Positions 1 through 18,017 of a stretch of 40,977 nt of DNA are shown piece after piece (position 1 is the stretch's first letter; every line of letters starts with the position of its first letter). The stretch lies in the IMG/VR virus record IMGVR_UViG_2563366910_000001, one strand, 5' to 3'. This DNA comes from a virus. Lineage: Duplodnaviria > Heunggongvirae > Uroviricota > Caudoviricetes. Both the position numbers and the translations under genes were made by a program. The notes beneath the pieces were generated by a model that was not told where the DNA came from, made no database searches, and worked only from the letters and a program-made list of their open reading frames with translations.

Positions 1-1143
1 CTATGCTGTTTTGATATCTACGATAATCCAGTCTTTACCACGATCATCATTGTATCGGTCGGTCATTTTTCTGGATTTATGACCTAACAACTTTTGCGTA
101 TCCAGACCCTGTTCCCGATATAACCGTTCTGACAGAGATCGCTGCTCATGAAATGTGGGCGCAGTTCCTGGCTCCCATTTTATGCCACATTTTTCCCTGG
201 CCTTTTTAAAAGCCGTTGTAAGAGTATTTGCAGACACCTGGTCTCCTCTGTTTGCTTGAGAGGTAGTGTGACGGTAATGGACCAGATATTTACTAACAAC
301 AGCATCCCTGCACTGAGATATAACTTCACGAAGGGTAATATTCAGAGCATCGCATTTCAGGTTAAGCGGAATAGCAAGTTTTGAACCGGTTTTTTCCTGA
401 GTAATGTGCAACATGTCGTCCCAGATATCAGAGAATTTCAAATTGCAGATATCGCCTAAACGTTGTCCAGTGACAAGAGCAAGTAGCATCCCGCATTTTA
501 AATAGGGCTGCCGTCTGCTTACGCTGTCAAATATTGCCTGCCATTCGGGCAGTGATAATCTTTGGCGGTTTACTCGATTTCGCGGTTGTTTTGTTGCCTG
601 CGCTGGGTTAAATCCTGGCGGAACATGTCCTGCGTGTTGTGCTTCTTTGAAGACGTCGATCAACACCATTCTCACGACTTGCGCCATCCTGTTATGACCT
701 TCAGCCTTTACAGCATCAATTATTTCGGCAATATCAAGTGCGGTAATATCCTTGAGGTGTTGCATTCCACAATGCTCACGGAAAAGACGAATGGGTTTGC
801 CTTTTTGCCGATAGGAGTTGGGTCTTAGTTCATTATGTTGCAGCCTGTCCTCCTGGATAGAAATATATTTATCAAGCCATTCTGTCACCGTAATGTCTGA
901 GCGCCTGCCTTTCATTCTTTCTAGACGCTCATTGACGCTTAATATTTGTCGGGTACGTTGTTCAGCAATAATGGTATTTGCTTCAGTAGCAACTTGTTTT
1001 GCTTCATTCTCATCAGTTCCTAAGCTATGAAAACGACCGGATAGTGGATGTTTGTATTGCCAATATACCTTTCCGGTTCGCTTATCTAATTTGCAATATA
1101 AATTGGGTATAGAGATTTTGTGAGATCGGGGTCTAGCAGCCAT
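1..1143 (-). CDS. int: Tyrosine recombinase, phage integrase (lambda Int family)
   Basis: 380-aa ORF ending at the window edge. C-terminal catalytic region resembles lambda Int (TFHEQRSLSERLY...LLGHKS...MTDRYNDDRG with the terminal Tyr), as recalled. First gene of the prophage, with xis overlapping upstream. Confidence 0.92.
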   Translation of the reverse strand: MAARPRSHKISIPNLYCKLDKRTGKVYWQYKHPLSGRFHSLGTDENEAKQVATEANTIIAEQRTRQILSVNERLERMKGRRSDITVTEWLDKYISIQEDRLQHNELRPNSYRQKGKPIRLFREHCGMQHLKDITALDIAEIIDAVKAEGHNRMAQVVRMVLIDVFKEAQHAGHVPPGFNPAQATKQPRNRVNRQRLSLPEWQAIFDSVSRRQPYLKCGMLLALVTGQRLGDICNLKFSDIWDDMLHITQEKTGSKLAIPLNLKCDALNITLREVISQCRDAVVSKYLVHYRHTTSQANRGDQVSANTLTTAFKKAREKCGIKWEPGTAPTFHEQRSLSERLYREQGLDTQKLLGHKSRKMTDRYNDDRGKDWIIVDIKTA

Positions 1144-1369
1144 CAGCGATTATCCGTTGGAGTTTTGGGTTTGCGTTTATTGGGAGTTGCGGTTCTGCAA
1201 GCGTTCCTACAAAACGGGAATTTCGGTCAATCATCCAGTAGCGACCAACTTTTATAGCGGGTGGGGCCATCATTTTCCCTTGCGCGTATTTTTTCAGAAC
1301 TCGCTCACTTGGTGCTAAGTCCCCAAATTCTTCTTTAGCCCAGTCCTGTAAAGTGATTAGTCGAGACAT
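1133..1369 (-). CDS. xis: Excisionase (Xis-like)
   Basis: 78-aa ORF overlapping the int start by 11 nt. Small basic protein in the canonical position upstream of int; N-terminal LITLQDWA motif resembles lambda Xis LTLQEWNA as recalled. Confidence 0.75.
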   Translation of the reverse strand: MSRLITLQDWAKEEFGDLAPSERVLKKYAQGKMMAPPAIKVGRYWMIDRNSRFVGTLAEPQLPINANPKLQRIIADGC

Positions 1370-1508
1370 TTGTCCTCCTCTTAGCTGCTGAGGGAGTTTG
1401 TGACCGATATATCTGACATGATATTAAGCTCATGGCAGGTACATCTCTTGACTGGTCATAGAGATAAATTTAATGCTGAGAAATGCAGTATTGAATTTAT
1501 CAATTTTT

Positions 1509-1748
1509 CTATTTCCTGCGTATGGCACGTAACTTCTTAATGTGTTCTGCTGTTTCGATCTCTTCAGCTATCCGATCTGCGTCAGCTTTATTCACAGGTT
1601 CAAAGTCATGATTAAAGCGGAACATGCTGGCGATACATGTTCTGCCTTTTCGGATGTAGTGAACTTTGTTGTGAGTGGAACGCAGGATTTTGCAGGGAGT
1701 GCCGTGGTGGTCGACGTACCAGGTGTTAGGGTAAATCACTCTGAACAT
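1509..1748 (-). CDS. Hypothetical early-left protein (79 aa)
   Basis: ORF in the leftward operon orientation between xis and the accessory genes; no motif recognised. Confidence 0.45.
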   Translation of the reverse strand: MFRVIYPNTWYVDHHGTPCKILRSTHNKVHYIRKGRTCIASMFRFNHDFEPVNKADADRIAEEIETAEHIKKLRAIRRK

Positions 1749-1773
1749 TCTTGACCTTGTGTTGTGCGGATTG

Positions 1774-2058
1774 TTATTCAGTGCCGATATTTACCTTTAT
1801 CGCGTATACCTTTACCGGTTTATCACCGAAGTGCGGATGTGTGATTGTCTTCACTTCATATCCGTCATACGGAACATCAACTCTGCGGCTGGAATCGTCG
1901 CGCTTCGGATATCCCTTTGTGATAATCAGGCGGTCATGCTTACGGTTAACGAGGCGCTTTTTCCAGTAGTCATTACACAGGCGATACTCTTCCGTTTTCT
2001 CTCCGCGAATCATGGCATCGAAGTATTCACCTTTAACGGCAAGTTGCAGGTTAGCCAC
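1774..2058 (-). CDS. ASCH-like small protein (GxKxxExR motif)
   Basis: Proposed GTG start at 2056-2058, preceded on the minus strand by AAGGAG with a 6-nt spacer. Protein contains EYFDAMIRGEKTEEYR, matching the ASCH-type GxKxxExR signature. An in-frame ATG at 2011-2013 would cut into this motif. Confidence 0.5.
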   Translation of the reverse strand: MANLQLAVKGEYFDAMIRGEKTEEYRLCNDYWKKRLVNRKHDRLIITKGYPKRDDSSRRVDVPYDGYEVKTITHPHFGDKPVKVYAIKVNIGTE

Positions 2059-2791
2059 GGTTAACTCCTTGCTGTGTGGCGTCGAGTAATAAATCCCACA
2101 ACCGCTGAGAGCAATTTCCGCATGTACAGCGTTGACCCACAACGTTTATCGCGTTGCTGATTTCCGGCGTTACCTGTTTAGGAACCATAACCCAACCATC
2201 CGGAGTTACCGGAAGCGAGAACGGCAGCACATCTCTGTGAACAAGTTTTTGCTGTGACAGGTTATCCAGAACTTTCTGTACTGCTGCATCACCGAATACA
2301 CCAAGCGCATCTGCCATAACTCCTACAACCTGATAAGCCTCAGCGCATACCGTGGATAAACCATCCGGAATTACCGGAGAGTTGCCGGGTTCTTTAATGT
2401 GCAAGCGAGGCTCACCATCTTTTGGCTCAGGCCACTGGCGCTCCATGTTGATCTTCAATTTATCTTCCATAGCAACGGTAATTTCAGCATCGCTGATGCC
2501 AGCACGGCGCTGTGCATCCCACAACAGAAACTGCATATCAGCCCACTCGCTAAGATCGTCTGGTTCGGCTGCGGCTTCCAGTGCCTCTTTTGAGAGGTGT
2601 TTCAGTGGACCAATGGGGCCAACGCAGCCAAATGTGGAGTCAGACCATTTGGCATGCTCGTGGCGAATCTGTTCGCGTTCCAGTGATGCCAGTGCAATTC
2701 GTGCTAGTTCCATTTGTTCGCCACGAGTAAGCCCGTTTTCAAGCGGATTTTTAATGAACAATTCAATACGTTCTTTGGTAATAGTGGTCAT
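2051..2791 (-). CDS. Hypothetical early-left protein (246 aa) with PVIPDG-type motifs
   Basis: Long ORF in operon orientation; stop overlaps the start of the downstream ASCH-like gene. Contains NSPVIPDGL and PVTPDGW motifs shared with neighbouring genes. Confidence 0.55.
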   Translation of the reverse strand: MTTITKERIELFIKNPLENGLTRGEQMELARIALASLEREQIRHEHAKWSDSTFGCVGPIGPLKHLSKEALEAAAEPDDLSEWADMQFLLWDAQRRAGISDAEITVAMEDKLKINMERQWPEPKDGEPRLHIKEPGNSPVIPDGLSTVCAEAYQVVGVMADALGVFGDAAVQKVLDNLSQQKLVHRDVLPFSLPVTPDGWVMVPKQVTPEISNAINVVGQRCTCGNCSQRLWDLLLDATQQGVNRG

Positions 2792-2997
2792 GTGTTAATC
2801 CTCAAAACTTTATGCCCGGGCGCAAAAGTACGTGTTTTGTCTTTGCTTATTCGCCACCCGTCTTTACGGGCCTCTTTTGCACAACCAGACCATGACGTAC
2901 CGATATACTCACCGAAGTCTGGCACTGGATATACACCTTCCGTACACTGGCGACAATCACAATAGAGATGCATGGTGTAACTTGCGGCAATAGCCAT
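2788..2997 (-). CDS. Cys-rich small protein (69 aa)
   Basis: ATG at 2995-2997 lies 1 nt after the upstream TGA (2999-3001). Contains a CDCRQC cluster; possible zinc-binding. 3' end overlaps the next gene by 4 nt. Confidence 0.45.
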   Translation of the reverse strand: MAIAASYTMHLYCDCRQCTEGVYPVPDFGEYIGTSWSGCAKEARKDGWRISKDKTRTFAPGHKVLRINT

Positions 2998-2998
2998 A

Positions 2999-3607
2999 TC
3001 ACTCTCTTTTTCCCTGAAGCATGGCAGCGTGGCAGGCATCCTCTACGCCCTTAACTGCATCTGCGCAGTAGTTATAGCGATTGCATTCCACTAACTTCTG
3101 CCTGAGATTTTCAATTGCTTGCGCGACATCAGCCTGTATTACAGGAACTGGCGGAACGGCTGTCTGCTGCTCTCGAACGTCATTAGTCGCTATCGGTTCT
3201 GCTGCCAACTGACTGGCATATTTGTTAATGGTAACGATAAGCTCTTGCTCAGCCTCATCCAGACAATCACCGATACCTCGCCTGTCGCCGTCAAAATCAT
3301 CGAAATCAGCACGAACTCTGGCAAATTTCAGGATTGCGGACAACACCTCACCAGGAATTACCGGAGAGTTGGTTGACGTTTCCGAAATTTCCCGAAAATT
3401 ATTGGTTGACGAATTCGCGTTTTCCCGAAAGTTTCCGGCATGAAGCATAGCCGCGCGGCAGGCGTTCCAGCCTCTCACCTCTGCAATAGCGGCAACAGCA
3501 TCGACCGCGTACATGCTAAGAGGGTTAGGCATTGGTTTTTCTTCAGGTACTACTGGCACTGGCTTGGCATATATAGCGGCTGAACATACCAACCCTTTGA
3601 TAACCAA
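2999..3607 (-). CDS. Hypothetical early-left protein (up to 202 aa)
   Basis: ORF in operon orientation with PVPVVPEE and NSPVIPGEV motifs. Start uncertain: in-frame Met codons at 3607, 3532 and 3514, and the upstream gene stops at 3550. Confidence 0.5.
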   Translation of the reverse strand: MVIKGLVCSAAIYAKPVPVVPEEKPMPNPLSMYAVDAVAAIAEVRGWNACRAAMLHAGNFRENANSSTNNFREISETSTNSPVIPGEVLSAILKFARVRADFDDFDGDRRGIGDCLDEAEQELIVTINKYASQLAAEPIATNDVREQQTAVPPVPVIQADVAQAIENLRQKLVECNRYNYCADAVKGVEDACHAAMLQGKRE

Positions 3608-3804
3608 CTGTCAGCAATGTTTTTACTCCTCGTTATTGCCGGAATACCTAAGCCATTGTCTGAATGCAGCCATGCCACCGGATTCTCTTCCAGCGATGCC
3701 AGAGCAATTTCATAAGCCCGGCGCTCAACATTGTCTCGCACATCCAAACTGCTGATACGCTCTTTGATTTCTTTAATCAGTTCTTTGTCGGTAAAAGTGC
3801 TCAT
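3550..3804 (-). CDS. Hypothetical small protein (84 aa)
   Basis: ATG at 3802-3804 lies 1 nt after the upstream stop (3806-3808), the same TGAtATG junction as at 2995-3001. Confidence 0.4.
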   Translation of the reverse strand: MSTFTDKELIKEIKERISSLDVRDNVERRAYEIALASLEENPVAWLHSDNGLGIPAITRSKNIADSWLSKGWYVQPLYMPSQCQ

Positions 3805-3805
3805 A

Positions 3806-4173
3806 TCAATCTCCATTGGTATCAATGTTTACAGCCTGACAAGACTCTTTGAGCACCCAGTCAATAGCGTCTTTCCATGCCTCTGTTTCGACTGGTGGAT
3901 TTTCACGCTTAACCTGTTCATAGAAGCGCACTGCTTTAACCAGTCCTTCCGGTACTACTGGTGATGGCTGTTTAGCTTCTAAATCAGCAATTCTGTCAAC
4001 CACGGCATCGACAGCATCTGAAAAGCCGAACCAGTTGCTCCACTCCGGCTCATCCCCGGTTGCTGCAAAGTACATATCTGCTAAAGCAGATTCAGCATGG
4101 TCACGCTCGTTAATGAGTTGCTCTTCGCTTTTCTCCAGTTCAGCAATACGCTTACCCCCATCCGAGATAACAC
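3806..4173 (-). pseudogene. 5'-truncated early-left gene interrupted by IS911
   Basis: The ORF 3806..4222 continues 49 nt into the IS911 left inverted repeat, so its first ~16 codons are IS-derived. The native portion (coiled-coil-like, with a PSPVVPEGL motif) begins at the IS boundary. Confidence 0.5.
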
Positions 4174-4245
4174 TGAAGTGGTTTACTGAATTTGGCCACC
4201 TGAACAGAGGTGATATGCTCACCTCAGAACAACACAGGTGCCATA

Positions 4246-5393
<1,148 letters not shown>

Positions 5394-5457
5394 CTCGGTG
5401 GCCAGTTTTTGTTGACCACTTCAATTCACCCCTACAGAGAGCAAAAGAGAAACGCCG

Positions 5458-6055: not shown

Positions 6056-6328
6056 TCATCTCGCCGTCAGTTGTTTTGATTTCCGGTAGCCTGCCGCGTA
6101 AAGAGCTACGTTCGGAAGACAAGTTGAACCTTCATATTTTCTGGTCAACGTTGTCAGAGTTATCACTTCTGCTCTCATTGCTGGTTTGAGCTTGCATTGC
6201 AAGACCACTCGTGAAGGGGTTGGCCTGTGTAGCTTGTCGGAGCTGATCGCCTCCTGACTTTGCAGATTTGCGCGACGAGCTCTACGGCGAGAAGCTGCGG
6301 TGCCTTTAAATTCTGTTTTTCTGGACAT
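6056..6328 (-). CDS. N: N-like transcription antitermination protein (arginine-rich motif)
   Basis: Proposed start MSRKTEFKGTAASRRRARRANLQ carries an arginine-rich motif near the N-terminus, like the boxB-binding motifs of lambda/21 N. First gene leftward of the pL/nutL region; RBS GGAGG upstream of the ATG at 6326-6328. Confidence 0.6.
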   Translation of the reverse strand: MSRKTEFKGTAASRRRARRANLQSQEAISSDKLHRPTPSRVVLQCKLKPAMRAEVITLTTLTRKYEGSTCLPNVALYAAGYRKSKQLTAR

Positions 6329-6426
6329 GGATTCCTCCCGAATAAACTTTGGCGATGCAATCTCGAAGCTCCTCCTGAGACGGTTGCTTCGGCATTGCAT
6401 CCCACAGCTTATGTGGTTGGGTGATC

Positions 6427-6764: not shown

Positions 6765-7517
6765 TTATGCTGCAAGTCTCTTAACCCAAGTCTCTCTTTT
6801 GGAGAATGGTAGAACTTGGCTTGATTCATGGAAGAGTAAGGAGAGTTGTTGCATTTGATCACCAATTGCTTCGCTGTCTATAACAACAAATCTGTTGTTA
6901 TACTCCTCACTTGAAGCTTTAAGATCAATTAGTTTCCCAAGCAATGAGTAAGCACTATTCCAGCTTCCTCCGTGTTTCACGCTTGATGTAAAAACGTATT
7001 TAGGTATGTCGGTTTTTATTGTTACAGGGACGGTAATTTGATGTCCACTCAAGCCATATACGTTTTCACGAAGAGAAAGTGCGTCTCTAAGCTCTGTGTG
7101 ATATAGATAATCAATAACCATACTTTCAAACTTTTCAGCTTGAACTGGCTGATACCAGTCTAACGACAAAGTTGATGCGAGTATACCAGCTCTAATTATG
7201 TTCGATGTAATCGCACCGACATCCTTTTCTGTTGCCCAAGCAATGATTTCTCCTCGAGCATTGAGTTCTGCGCCTTCTTTAAGCAGTAATTGTCGTATCT
7301 CATCAAGTCGTTTTTTGGTAAGCGAGATCCCTCTTGCCTCCATATTCATTAAGGCATCGCATCTGTCACTAACTAAATACCTACCATTGACTTCACGGAT
7401 AAAGGCACCGACATGCTCTCCATCATCACAGTAAGTGAATGGACTGATAATTCTCAAGGTCTTGCCTATTGGATGGCATTCGAAACCTAGTTGTGAGATC
7501 ACTGTTGAGCACATCAT
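6765..7517 (-). CDS. Hypothetical protein (250 aa), distal gene of cI-linked cassette
   Basis: ATG at 7515-7517 overlaps the upstream stop (ATGA coupling). AT-rich relative to flanking phage genes. No motif recognised. Followed by the terminator at 6733-6759. Confidence 0.6.
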   Translation of the reverse strand: MMCSTVISQLGFECHPIGKTLRIISPFTYCDDGEHVGAFIREVNGRYLVSDRCDALMNMEARGISLTKKRLDEIRQLLLKEGAELNARGEIIAWATEKDVGAITSNIIRAGILASTLSLDWYQPVQAEKFESMVIDYLYHTELRDALSLRENVYGLSGHQITVPVTIKTDIPKYVFTSSVKHGGSWNSAYSLLGKLIDLKASSEEYNNRFVVIDSEAIGDQMQQLSLLFHESSQVLPFSKRETWVKRLAA

Positions 7518-8071
7518 ATTCCAAACCCCATTTGCCCCGACTCATCTTCAAGCGGTAAAGGTATTCTCCCAGAGTAAGTTATGTTCAGATGTTTACAGAA
7601 GTAATTCCAATACCCTACCAGGTCATCTGGGTTTATGTCATCTTCGATTGGAAACGCTATTCTATCACTATAGTATCCAGCTTCTTCATAGTATACATGG
7701 TAGTGAGCACCGTAAATGATATCTTGGTACTTCGGATGATCGACCTTGTAACTATTCGTGTGTTTGTCAAAGTGATAGGTATCTACCGCGAAAACCCTCT
7801 TGTTATGATAGAAAGCAATAATATTTATTTTAGGGTAAGAAATCGGGTCATCAGGTTCTGAATCCTGATCTGGTTTCCATTTCAGTTCAAACTTTAGCCC
7901 TTGTATAGGTATACAATCCTCATCCAAGGGGATGATATGGGCTTGTAGCCACATATCAGAGCGACTTGGTTTCTGTTTCCATTTAACGCCAGAAAAGTTA
8001 ACTATTTTTTTACAATAAAGTACTTTATCAACTTCTACTTGGCTTGGCTGATAATCATCTATTTTTGCCAA
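7514..8071 (-). CDS. Hypothetical protein (185 aa), proximal gene of cI-linked cassette
   Basis: ORF begins 39 nt after the cI stop. The only start at the 5' end is TTG (8069-8071) with a weak SD; the next in-frame ATG is at 7954. AT-rich, His/Tyr/Asp-rich C-terminal half. No motif recognised. Confidence 0.5.
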   Translation of the reverse strand: MAKIDDYQPSQVEVDKVLYCKKIVNFSGVKWKQKPSRSDMWLQAHIIPLDEDCIPIQGLKFELKWKPDQDSEPDDPISYPKINIIAFYHNKRVFAVDTYHFDKHTNSYKVDHPKYQDIIYGAHYHVYYEEAGYYSDRIAFPIEDDINPDDLVGYWNYFCKHLNITYSGRIPLPLEDESGQMGFGI

Positions 8072-11452: not shown

Positions 11453-11478
11453 CCATCTACATCACTGAGCTAATAACA

Positions 11479-11506
11479 GGCCTGCAGGTAATCGCAGGCC
11501 TTTTTA
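11479..11506 (+). terminator. Rho-independent terminator (tR2 position)
   Basis: GGCCTGC-aggtaatc-GCAGGCC hairpin followed by TTTTTATTT, immediately after ren and before ninB. Confidence 0.65.
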
Positions 11507-11525
11507 TTTGGGGGAGAGGGAAGTC

Positions 11526-11966
11526 ATGAAAAAACTAACCTTTGAAATTCGATCTCCGGCACATCAGCAAAACGCTATTCACGCAGTACAGCAAATCCTT
11601 CCAGACCCAACCAAACCAATCGTAGTAACCATTCAGGAACGCAACCGCAGCTTAGACCAAAACAGGAAGCTATGGGCCTGCTTAGGTGACGTCTCTCGTC
11701 AGGTTGAATGGCATGGTCGCTGGCTGGATGCAGAAAGCTGGAAGTGTGTGTTTACCGCAGCATTAAAGCAGCAGGATGTTGTTCCTAACCTTGCCGGGAA
11801 TGGCTTTGTGGTAATAGGCCAGTCAACCAGCAGGATGCGTGTAAGCGAATTTGCGGAGCTATTAGAGCTTATACAGGCATTCGGTACAGAGCGTGGCGTT
11901 AAGTGGTCAGACGAAGCGCGACTGGCTCTCGAATGGAAAGCGCGATGGGGAGATCGGGCTGCATGA
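11526..11966 (+). CDS. ninB: NinB (Orf-family recombination mediator)
   Basis: 146-aa protein starting MKKLTFEIRSPAHQQ, matching recalled lambda NinB. Confidence 0.85.
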   Translation: MKKLTFEIRSPAHQQNAIHAVQQILPDPTKPIVVTIQERNRSLDQNRKLWACLGDVSRQVEWHGRWLDAESWKCVFTAALKQQDVVPNLAGNGFVVIGQSTSRMRVSEFAELLELIQAFGTERGVKWSDEARLALEWKARWGDRAA

Positions 11967-12490
11967 CTATCAAATCAAATACGCCAGCACACGACAAGGA
12001 CTGCTGGCAAACGCCGCTTTGGCTTTTTGATGCACTGGATATTGAGTTTGGATTCTGGCTGGATTCGGCAGCGAGCGACAAAAATGCTCTGTGCGCTCAC
12101 TGGCTAACTGAGGACGACGACGCGCTCAATTCTGAGTGGGTAAGCCACGGTGCAATCTGGAATAACCCACCGTACAGCAATATCAGGCCGTGGGTGGAAA
12201 AAGCCGCTGAGCAGTGTATACAACAGCGACAGACGGTAGTGATGCTTGTGCCAGAGGATATGTCTGTCGGATGGTTCAGCAAGGCTCTGGAGAGTGTTGA
12301 CGAAGTTCGTATTATCACTGATGGACGGATTAATTTTATCGAACCATCGACAGGGCTGGAGAAGAAGGGAAACAGCAAAGGCTCCATGCTGCTGATTTGG
12401 CGACCGTTCATCAGTCCTCGACGGATGTTTACTACCGTATCCAAAGCGGCATTGATGGCGATCGGGCAGGGCGTCAGGAGGGCTGCATGA
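11963..12490 (+). CDS. Phage N6-adenine DNA methyltransferase (Dam-like, NPPY motif)
   Basis: Start overlaps the ninB stop (ATGA). Contains the N6-adenine MTase motif IV (IWNNPPYSN) and the WQTP segment typical of phage Dam-family methyltransferases. No adjacent restriction endonuclease gene. Confidence 0.8.
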
Positions 12491-12663
12491 GACGACAGCG
12501 ACGAAGCATCACCGACATAATCTGCGAAAACTGCAAATACCTTCCAACGAAACGCTCCAGAAATAAACGCAAGCTAATCCCAAAAGAATCTGACGTAAAA
12601 ACCTTCAATTACACAGCCCACCTGTGGGATATCCGGTGGCTAAGATATCGTGCGAGGAAATGA
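12487..12663 (+). CDS. ninE: NinE
   Basis: 58-aa protein [29 protein letters not shown]..., matching recalled lambda/DLP12 NinE. ATGA overlap with the methyltransferase stop. Confidence 0.7.
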
Positions 12664-13007: not shown

Positions 13008-13194
13008 CCCATCTCAATCCCTTCAATACCTGAAAGAAAGCATAGAGCGGGCTTCAATGTGCACAGAGTGGATTCTATCTAGGTTTAGCGCATACAGAAG
13101 ATTGCCGGTAAAGGGCATGCCAAGCAAGTCGATGCTGCATATGCAAAAGAATGCGCGCTGGAAGGTATGGCGAGAACACAGGTTATGTGGCTGA
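13000..13194 (+). CDS. NinF-like small protein (N-terminus lambda-like, C-terminus divergent)
   Basis: Begins [18 protein letters not shown] like recalled lambda NinF, but the remainder lacks the Cys-rich segment. Confidence 0.45.
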
Positions 13195-13213
13195 AAGAGG
13201 GGGTTATTAAGGC

Positions 13214-13576
13214 GTGAATACCTACAGCATCACATTACCCTGGCCTCCGGGCAATAATCGCTATTACCGCCATAATCGCGGGCGCACGCACGTCAGCGCA
13301 GAGGGGCAGGCATACCGCGATAACGTCGCCCGAATCATTAAAAACGCAATGCTGGATATCGGCCTGGCTATGCCTGTGAAAATCCGCATTGAGTGCCACA
13401 TGCCGGATCGCCGTCGCCGTGACCTGGATAATCTGCAAAAAGCCGCTTTTGACGCACTCACTAAAGCAGGTTTCTGGCTGGATGATGCTCAGGTCGTTGA
13501 TTACCGCGTTGTGAAGATGCCTGTTACCAAAGGTGGGAGGCTGGAACTGACCATCACCGAAATGGGGAATGAATGA
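13214..13576 (+). CDS. rusA: RusA Holliday junction resolvase
   Basis: 120-aa protein [37 protein letters not shown]..., matching recalled E. coli DLP12 RusA. GTG start. Confidence 0.9.
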
Positions 13577-14370: not shown

Positions 14371-15453
14371 TTAGAACTGATAAACCAGACCTACAGCGAC
14401 GATGTCGTCGGTATCAATACCAGCTGTTTTGGTAAACTTACTATCGTCAATTAAGTTGATTTTGTAATCAACAAAAGTGGACATGTTTTTATTAAAGTAG
14501 TAAGTAGCACCGACATCGACATACTTGACTAAGTCTCGGTCACCATGAACACCAAGGTCTTTACCTTTTGACTGAAGGTAAGCAACAGATGGACGCAGAC
14601 CGAAGTCAAACTGATATTGTGCTACTGCTTCAAAGTTTTGTGCTTTGTTTGCAATATGGTTATTACCAAAAACGGTCATATTCTGAGTTTCAGAATATGT
14701 GGTAGCCAGATAGATATTGTTCGCATCATATTTCAGGCCTGCAGCCCATACTTCCGCATTTTTGCCGGAGGCATTGAATTTGCTCTTACCATAGGCGACC
14801 TGACCGTCAGTGCGATCTGATTTAGCATAGGTTGCACCCACGCCGAATCCTTCATACTCATAAGTAGTGGAGAAACCGAAACCATCACCATTGGCTTCAG
14901 TTACGTCAGTGCGGTCATTTTTACCCTGATACTGAGCAGCAAAGTTCAGGCCATCGACCAGACCAAAGAAGTCGTTGTTACGATAAGTTGCAACACCAGT
15001 AGTGCGACCAGTCATGAACACATCTGTTTGGGTCCAGGTATCACCACCGAATTCTGGCAGAACGTCAGTCCACGCACCGATGTCGTATGCTACACCGTAG
15101 TTACGGCCGTAATCGATTGAGCCGTAATCACCAAATTTCAGGCCTGCAAATGCAAGACGGGTTTTGTCTTTGGAAGAACCTTGAGATTCAGCACGGTTGC
15201 CTTTGAATTCATATTCCCACTGACCGAAACCAGTCAGTTGATCGTTGATTTGGGTTTCACCTTTGAAGCCAAGACGGGCATAAGTAGTATCACCATCATC
15301 TGCATCATTAGAGGAGAAGTAGTGCTTGGCATTAACTTTCCCGTATAGATCCAGCTTGTTACTGTCTTTATTATAAATTTCAGCTGCCTGAGCAGACATC
15401 GCCATCAGTACTGATGCAGCTACAGCAGAAATTGCCACTGTTAATTTTTTCAT
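14371..15453 (-). CDS. nmpC: Outer-membrane porin, OmpC/NmpC/Lc family (phage-encoded)
   Basis: 360-aa protein with signal peptide ([23 protein letters not shown]), AEIYNKD start of the mature protein, and the C-terminal ...VGLVYQF beta-barrel signature of general porins. Antisense to the late transcript, between Q and the lysis genes as in DLP12/PA-2. Confidence 0.9.
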
Positions 15454-15880
15454 TGTACGCCCTTTTTTTGAACTTTTATTAAAAAATGATGTCACTGCGC
15501 GATAAATATTCATCTAATCAATGTGATTATTTCAAGATGTAAGTTTTAGTTTCTCATTTAATTTGTGAAGTAGATCTCTATTTTTATCTGAACCTTTTCT
15601 ATCTAATCCTATTCATGGCTCTTGTCTGAACAAAAATAAATCTATTAGCTAATTTATATTAATGGCACTTATTTATAAGTGCTCTATAATTCTTTAGCTT
15701 AATTTAAACAAACTAAAAATAACATCGGAAATTATTAACTGGTTATTTGTTGAAGCTTTCTTATGCATTTGTGGTGGTGTTTTGAACACTCGGTGGCATT
15801 CTCACAAATATCATTTAGTAGTTTACGTACGTAAAAAATTGGTTATGCTGTTAAGAGTGGTTACTTCGTCACACAGCTTA

Positions 15881-17243: not shown

Positions 17244-17537
17244 TTATTGTGAGCAATACACACGCGCTTCCAGCGGAGTATAAATGCCTAAAGTAATAAA
17301 ACCGAGCAATCCATTTACGAATGTTTGCTGGGTTTCTGTTTTAACAACATTTTCTGCACCACCACAAATTTTTGCTGCATCGACAGTTTTCTTCTGCCCA
17401 ATTCCCGAAACGAAGAAATGATGGGTGATGGTTTCCTTTGGTGTTACTGCTGTAGGTTTGTTTCCAACAGTAAACGTCTGTTGAGCACATCCTGTAATAA
17501 GCATTGCCAGAGCGGCAGAAAACAACATTTTTTTCAT
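17244..17537 (-). CDS. bor: Bor lipoprotein (serum-resistance factor)
   Basis: 97-aa protein MKKMLFSAALAMLITGCAQQTFTV... with a lipobox; matches recalled lambda Bor. Opposite strand, just downstream of Rz. Confidence 0.85.
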   Translation of the reverse strand: MKKMLFSAALAMLITGCAQQTFTVGNKPTAVTPKETITHHFFVSGIGQKKTVDAAKICGGAENVVKTETQQTFVNGLLGFITLGIYTPLEARVYCSQ

Positions 17538-18017
17538 CTTATTATCCTGCATTGTTAAAAACGGCAGAATCCTATGTGACAACAATTAAACGATAGTTAA
17601 ATGGATTGATGAAAATTAAAACTACACAGGTGGGCTCAGACTATTGGAGGAAGTTGGGGACACTCAGAATCCTGTGGAATGAAATAAACCGGTCTATCCG
17701 TCCATTACCCTTTTAGCTGCGCTGTATCGTCGCCGTATTCCCGCATTAACCATGACCGTAGCCCGACGGGGAATTCCTTCTGCGTGAGTGTGCGGGAATA
17801 ATTAAAAACGATGCACACCGGGTTTTTACCGCGTTAATGATTCGCGGGTTTATCCCGGTGCGATGGTGGAAGAAACAGGAAGCTGTATTACAGAAAGTGC
17901 TACTACTGTATCCCGATGCGATGTATGTAATGTGAGTCAGATAATGGCACAGGATGTGGTGATGTGGCAGTCTGGAACACAGGATATATTGTCAGAATAA
18001 GACCCGTAGGAATAAAA

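Follow-up and report, generated by a model that had tools for sequence, protein, structure and literature searches.

A putative orphan N6-adenine methyltransferase of the phage Dam family, encoded by an optional gene between ninB and ninE in a lambda-like prophage

The closest described relative of the gene considered here is orf32 of the Shiga toxin (Stx) phage VT2-Sakai (NP_050531). The gene itself, called dam below, lies at 11963-12490 (+) in a stretch of tailed-phage DNA (Caudoviricetes) of 40,977 nucleotides, IMG/VR record IMGVR_UViG_2563366910_000001, which is referred to in full as the window. The two proteins are equal in length and identical at 174 of 175 residues; the sole substitution is A51 in VT2-Sakai against D51 in the window protein. 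Like dam, orf32 lies between ninB and ninE, and an equivalent gene is found in 933W-like and other Stx phages. The carriers differ: the window phage is lambda-like and long-tailed, lacks stx and, as a prophage, sits beside icd in the manner of Escherichia coli Nissle 1917, whereas VT2-Sakai is a short-tailed Stx phage. The Stx-phage twin of the window gene was reportedly cloned and described as a GATC methylase in 2001. Within the VT2-Sakai record of 86 features, orf32 is the only annotated methyltransferase. A passage of PMC6602927, citing Radlinska & Bujnicki (2001), states that M.EcoVT2Dam, an orphan enzyme of prophage VT2-Sa, 'is known to target 5'-GATC-3''. Comparison of sequence records gives strong grounds for equating M.EcoVT2Dam with orf32. 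VT2-Sakai orf4 was also considered as the 'VT-2 dam' and is ruled out, being a DUF551 protein.

More distant relatives are found in phages HP1 and T1. Both enzymes are orphans annotated as DNA methyltransferases, and both have GATC specificity. HP1 Dam (orf13, 173 residues) matches the Pfam family PF05869 with an E value of 7e-75 and is 35% identical to the window protein; for T1 Dam (gp20, 237 residues) the corresponding values are 1.7e-70 and 32%. The WxTP, LDxxA, NPPYS and R..F motifs are common to all three proteins. T1 Dam differs in an N-terminal extension of about 45 residues and a 14-residue insertion. The genetic contexts are also unlike that of the window gene, HP1 Dam belonging to a P2-like early operon and T1 being a virulent siphovirus. 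HP1 and VT-2 are among the phages listed with Dam-like genes (PMC7556043). PamA, from phi11-like prophages of Staphylococcus aureus, methylates GATC in vivo and makes the DNA sensitive to DpnI, and its NPPY mutants are inactive (PMC12435837). ORF032 of Staphylococcus phage 52A, a PF05869 protein of 141 residues that runs from M1 to Q141 with NPPY at 64-67, has every published feature of PamA. The PamA-type protein is about 34% identical to the window protein over residues 15-147 and has a shorter C-terminus. The PamA host has no chromosomal Dam, so PamA makes a new mark and alters host gene expression and virulence, whereas E. coli already has Dam.

Two other groups of enzymes invite comparison. 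The Dam proteins of E. coli and T4 (alpha-class, MethyltransfD12) resemble the window enzyme in their N6-adenine chemistry, reported GATC target and Rossmann superfold. The window protein lacks the defining marks of that family, which are the MethyltransfD12 profile, a DPPY motif and an inserted target-recognition domain, and a Pfam scan gave no match to it. M.EcoPA8orf6770P, an MT-A70 protein of Stx prophages, is likewise prophage-encoded and annotated as a DNA adenine methyltransferase in lambdoid E. coli phages. It prefers 16S rRNA, carries DPPW, is encoded near int in the early-left region, and requires the winged-helix partner PNB-2 encoded just upstream (PMC10810198). The Pfam scan of the window protein gave no MT-A70 match; its motif is NPPY and the upstream gene encodes NinB. 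The idea that the window gene is this Stx-prophage rRNA methyltransferase, described in 2023, is ruled out by family, motif (NPPY against DPPW), location and the lack of a PNB-2 partner.

The window gene resembles the enzymes of VT2-Sakai, HP1 and T1 in every motif that they share. Its open reading frame (ORF) comprises 175 codons and a stop, with ATG at 11963-11965 and TGA at 12488-12490. An earlier annotation made from the sequence alone, here termed the original prediction, had described a 175-residue protein with an NPPY motif at this position, and both are as described, with NPPY at residues 68-71. PF05869, 'DNA N-6-adenine-methyltransferase (Dam)', is matched with an E value of 3.7e-65 and 219.1 bits (cut-off 28.1) over profile positions 1-167 of 169. 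The NCBIfam equivalog TIGR01712, 'phage N-6-adenine-methyltransferase', is matched over all of its positions (1-165 of 165) with 265.6 bits (cut-off 97.05). The protein also matches PHROG 111, 'DNA methyltransferase', over its full length, and its top PADLOC model is 'oMTase' (orphan methyltransferase). The gene and three of its conserved segments are as follows.

11963-12490, + strand: dam-like gene for a predicted 175-residue phage N6-adenine methyltransferase (PF05869/TIGR01712), from the ORF, the profile matches and 100% nucleotide identity to annotated genes.
12005-12016, + strand: codons for W15-Q16-T17-P18, the N-terminal 'WxTP' motif; T17 is invariant and P18 at least 90% conserved, and W15, T17 and P18 are kept in HP1 and T1.
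12059-12076, + strand: codons for L33-D34-S35-A36-A37-S38, the conserved 'LDxAAS' segment; D34 is invariant and A37 at least 90% conserved.
12164-12175, + strand: codons for N68-P69-P70-Y71, motif IV (catalytic, adenine-binding loop), from conservation across 57 homologues; all four residues are kept in HP1, T1 and Staphylococcus phage 52A.

Conservation refers to a set of 57 proteins, the window protein and 56 diverse full-length relatives (32-66% identity), drawn from an exhaustive homologue search that returned 8973 clusters at 50% identity (E up to 1e-3). Six columns are invariant (M1, T17, D34, N68, P70 and R122) and a further eight (P18, F31, A37, W59, P69, Y71, L95 and F125) are conserved in at least 90% of the set. 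The window protein has the consensus residue at all of them, and the GRxxF segment that holds R122 and F125 is present. Disruption of the catalytic motifs on alignment had been named beforehand as grounds for rejecting the original prediction; all family-conserved residues proved intact. In the predicted structure, 'LDxAAS' closes the first beta-strand (model strand residues 31-36), at the place of motif I in a Rossmann methyltransferase, and from this position it may bind S-adenosylmethionine (AdoMet). Judged by these comparisons, the window gene encodes what appears to be an intact orphan N6-adenine methyltransferase of the phage 'Dam' family (PF05869/TIGR01712). Other architectures occur in the databases. 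Entries P0002, P0011, P0016, P0113, P0136, P0137, P0144 and P0237 are Dam-domain fusions or multidomain forms. Some entries join the Dam domain to NinE, NinB or RusA, and these fusions are probably frameshifts or products of gene-calling across ATGA overlaps. Some distant relatives of 500-690 residues have a C-terminal Dam domain, so that multidomain versions of the family do exist.

The gene is already annotated and very common; it is real but ordinary, and adds little as a discovery. The same nucleotide sequence (100% identity) is annotated as a gene in phages ev207, ev017, PhiR57_1 and PhiR63_2, and it recurs in the E. coli type strain ATCC 11775, in Nissle 1917, in NU14 and in other strains. 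The Nissle 1917 copy (WP_000153286.1, 'phage N-6-adenine-methyltransferase') lies between genes annotated as 'recombination protein NinB' and 'NinE family protein', and window positions 5434-32490 are 99.86% identical to the Nissle 1917 prophage, which is integrated beside icd. Among 5426 complete E. coli genomes, 1566 carry dam at a nucleotide identity of at least 95%, as do 244 phage records, to which Stx1- and Stx2-converting phages contribute many; the family as a whole is found in 1906 of 50,697 phage records. It could still be supposed that the window copy has no function and persists as an inactive passenger, either decaying or unexpressed, in a partly degraded prophage. An IS3-family insertion does lie in the early-left region of the prophage (4174-5425), and close relatives that are without the gene show it to be dispensable. 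The ORF is nevertheless full-length and has lost none of the conserved residues; viable phages, among them ev207, ev017 and PhiR57_1, carry it at 100% identity, and identity of at least 95% is maintained across 1566 genomes. A functionless remnant is thus exceedingly unlikely. The general question raised by this distribution is why a GATC methylase should be so common in phages whose hosts already have Dam. Staphylococcal PamA illustrates that such enzymes can reprogram host virulence where the host lacks Dam.

The product of the window gene is very probably a delayed-early, N-dependent and AdoMet-dependent enzyme that methylates the adenine of GATC on replicating phage DNA and has no restriction partner. 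GATC specificity is proposed by analogy with the reported activity of the VT2 protein, identical at 174 of 175 residues, and of other family members. The following course of events is envisaged. (i) After prophage induction or infection, the N protein would read through the terminator upstream of ninB, allowing dam to be expressed. (ii) The enzyme would be made in series with NinB and NinE from the rightward delayed-early (nin) operon. (iii) It would methylate GATC, the mark of host Dam, on fast-replicating phage DNA that host Dam cannot keep fully modified. (iv) Progeny DNA with fully methylated GATC would resist methylation-sensitive enzymes that cut GATC (MboI/DpnII type). (v) Full methylation would also remove the hemimethylated or unmethylated GATC sites used by MutH, and incision during recombination-dependent replication would be avoided. 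The benefit could lie in protection from GATC endonucleases, in avoidance of MutH, or in both. Virion DNA of P22 and lambda is reported to be under-methylated at Dam sites by host Dam (PMC8022706). Both phages are without a dam gene of the window type. Across the whole window GATC occurs 114 times against 188 expected from a second-order Markov model (ratio 0.61), which makes it the second most depleted 4-base palindrome after CTAG (0.31). This depletion is consistent with selection acting on GATC in the window phage. The anti-restriction or epigenetic-regulation roles suggested in the original prediction are generic, and the GATC specificity reported for VT2 duplicates that of host Dam.

Several observations weigh against GATC methylation of phage DNA as the function. 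In E. coli, host Dam already does what a GATC methylase would do, and the selective benefit of the phage enzyme is therefore not obvious. Another Stx-phage 'DNA adenine methyltransferase', of a different family, prefers 16S rRNA (PMC10810198). The equation of M.EcoVT2Dam with orf32 depends on orf32 being the only methyltransferase annotated in VT2-Sakai. Two further points come from the predicted structure. The AlphaFold2 model, built on the 57 homologues (mean predicted local distance difference test score 89.9; predicted template modelling score 0.87), is a single alpha/beta Rossmann-type domain with no separate target-recognition domain in its 175 residues, which leaves the reading of four bases unexplained. 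Its single best structural neighbour is PCIF1, an RNA cap methyltransferase. The DNA methyltransferases M.TaqI, M.BseCI, MmeI and HsdM score nearly as high, the alignments cover only the catalytic domains of these much larger enzymes, and METTL3/METTL14 and METTL4 are weak Foldseek matches only (E of at least 0.03). Searching the PDB by sequence yielded no meaningful match (best E 0.31). The model suggests that the PF05869 family and host Dam are of different, non-homologous classes, with PCIF1 and catalytic domains of the M.TaqI type as the nearest solved folds of the former. The label 'Dam-family' in the original prediction consequently needs qualification: it is apt in the PF05869 sense, and does not extend to the E. 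coli/T4 Dam family, which the protein does not match.

The small size of the protein also bears on the possibility that it is a DNA adenine methyltransferase of broader or other specificity than GATC, relaxed to the point of being nearly non-specific, and giving general protection against many restriction systems. With only 175 residues and no target-recognition domain such behaviour is conceivable, and there are precedents in the orphan adenine methyltransferase of Serratia prophage OS31 (PMC7556043) and in homologues of M.EcoGI/GII, which are listed as nonspecific (PMC6602927). That either OS31 or M.EcoGI/GII belongs to PF05869 is not established, however, while the 99%-identical VT2 enzyme is reported to be GATC-specific and PamA-type members of the family give the DpnI phenotype expected for GATC. 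Relaxed specificity is accordingly judged unlikely. The similarity to PCIF1 raises a different possibility, that the physiological substrate is RNA, either rRNA or another species, whose methylation would modulate translation or prophage induction. The precedent for 16S rRNA is an MT-A70 protein with DPPW, encoded near int and dependent on a winged-helix partner, whereas the window gene, with ninB and ninE on either side, encodes an NPPY protein of another family. M.TaqI, M.BseCI, MmeI and HsdM score almost as high as PCIF1, and methylation of GATC in DNA is reported for members of the family. An RNA substrate is most improbable on this evidence. The near-identity to the VT2 enzyme, together with the intact motifs and the strong conservation, gives all three alternatives (relaxed specificity, RNA as the substrate, and an inactive passenger gene) a low probability.

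One more departure from GATC methylation of replicating phage DNA can be envisaged. The lack of a recognition domain and the nearest solved fold, PCIF1, make it conceivable that the enzyme has an added or different substrate in vivo, such as single-stranded or recombination-intermediate DNA, or RNA, in connection with the adjacent ninB and rusA; separately, an 11-nucleotide repeat around the gene might mark a cassette that moves between phages by short-homology recombination. This reading is considered very unlikely. The literature was also searched for ninB together with Dam methyltransferase, and no specific result emerged.

Four further features describe the arrangement of the locus.

11526-11966, + strand: ninB (ORF), upstream neighbour, recombination mediator, from PF05772 and the NinB annotation in the identical Nissle locus.
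12487-12663, + strand: ninE, downstream neighbour, from PF05322 (E 1.8e-41) and the annotation as NinE family protein.
11956-11966, + strand: left copy of the 11-nucleotide direct repeat GGGCTGCATGA, holding the ninB stop and the dam start, from a repeat search.
12480-12490, + strand: right copy of GGGCTGCATGA, holding the dam stop and the ninE start, from a repeat search.

The repeat GGGCTGCATGA occurs exactly twice in the window, against 0.04 copies expected, and the two copies bracket the dam ORF precisely. A synthetic 'deleted' junction, in which the last 200 nucleotides of ninB are followed directly by the first 200 nucleotides beyond the second repeat, aligns as one unbroken piece of 400 nucleotides, at 96-97.5% identity, with phages JEP4, CUS-3, HK106 and mEp234. 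In HK106 the empty site reads ninB-GGCTGCATGA-ninE, with both genes annotated and joined through a single copy of the repeat. Because the repeat brackets the ORF and relatives carry a precise empty site, dam is an optional presence/absence module, the gain or loss of which preserves ATGA coupling. The statement in the original prediction that the gene is inserted between ninB and ninE is thus literally correct. The cassette fits the gene-boundary mosaicism that is well known in lambdoid phages, and the only additional angle offered by the window copy is as a clean example of a precisely bounded optional cassette.

Both junctions of the gene have the sequence ATGA. At the 5' junction the dam ATG (11963-11965) runs into the ninB TGA (11964-11966), and at the 3' junction the ninE ATG (12487-12489) runs into the dam TGA (12488-12490), which bears out in sequence the earlier placement of the gene between ninB and ninE. 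Shine-Dalgarno-like purine runs precede both starts, GGGGAG at 11947-11952 for dam and AGGAGG at 12476-12481 for ninE. Overlaps of the ATGA type are a usual feature of lambdoid nin regions (PMC8022706), and from those seen here the three genes are probably translated in series. In the Pfam scan the 5' neighbour is NinB (PF05772, E 1.1e-54), and NinE (PF05322, E 1.8e-41) is followed by NinX on the 3' side. Just 5' of rusA, at about 13128-13217, lies a truncated DUF1364 (NinF-like) pseudogene without its N-terminus, as indicated by the matching Nissle annotation; it points to small deletions having occurred in this part of the nin region.

Expression of the gene can be considered in the light of one upstream feature.

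11478-11510, + strand: terminator-like hairpin and T-run between ren and ninB, with a stem of 8 pairs, 6 of them GC (11478-11501), followed by TTTTTATTT.

From its position, this hairpin would be the equivalent of lambda tR2. The N gene is present at 6056-6400 (-) (PF25694). A promoter scan of the region found 9 sigma-70-like sites against 8.6 expected by chance, and thus no evidence of an independent promoter. Lambdoid phage anatomy suggests that dam sits in the N-antitermination-dependent, delayed-early part of the rightward (nin) operon. Given the upstream terminator, the absence of any better-than-chance promoter and the presence of N, the gene is most likely expressed only after induction or infection. 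Lying behind a terminator in an N-dependent operon, it is probably off in the lysogen.

The orphan status of the enzyme was examined across the window. No restriction enzyme is annotated in the Nissle 1917 prophage in the part that matches window positions 5434-32490, and Pfam and PADLOC scans of the window ORFs outside this overlap detected no restriction endonuclease. Those ORFs match only integrase, dATP/dGTP pyrophosphohydrolase, SieB, N, a DUF1828/DUF6978 pair and lambda-type tail proteins. The sole endonuclease shown by the annotation and the scans is RusA, a Holliday-junction resolvase. The absence of a restriction partner, asserted in the original prediction, is borne out by the Nissle annotation together with these scans. 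A Type II restriction-modification system, which pairs a methyltransferase with an endonuclease of the same specificity, is not encoded here, since the window has no gene for such an endonuclease.

Several minor observations concern the remainder of the prophage. Two genes at 6765-8071 (-) occupy the place of lambda rexAB, with the cI-like repressor on one side and N on the other. They encode a 250-residue DUF1828 protein and a 185-residue protein with a weak DUF6978 match. Their PADLOC hits, PDC-M24B (E 4.7e-10) and PDC-M24A (E 4.8e-4), are to a candidate defence system, and the two are a possible prophage-encoded anti-phage pair. Comparison of window positions 1-5433 with the Nissle 1917 locus reveals an intact lambda-type integrase of 380 residues (1-1143, -) and about 3.7 kb of early-left genes (429-4173) that are missing from the Nissle prophage. 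The IS3-family element at 4174-5425 in the early-left region is 100% identical to the Nissle copy and in the opposite orientation. The intact integrase and the early-left genes that Nissle lacks thus mark the window as a relative of the icd prophage of Nissle that has undergone less degradation. The early-left region also encodes a 246-residue protein (2051-2791, -) with a dATP/dGTP pyrophosphohydrolase domain (PF04447, E 8e-42). Annotations of the near-identical Nissle locus identify an OmpC-like porin at 14371-15513 (-), between the Q antiterminator and the lysis genes, and an Iss/Bor serum-survival lipoprotein at about 17244-17585 (-), after the lysis genes. Both are cargo of the lysogenic-conversion type, carried on the opposite strand.
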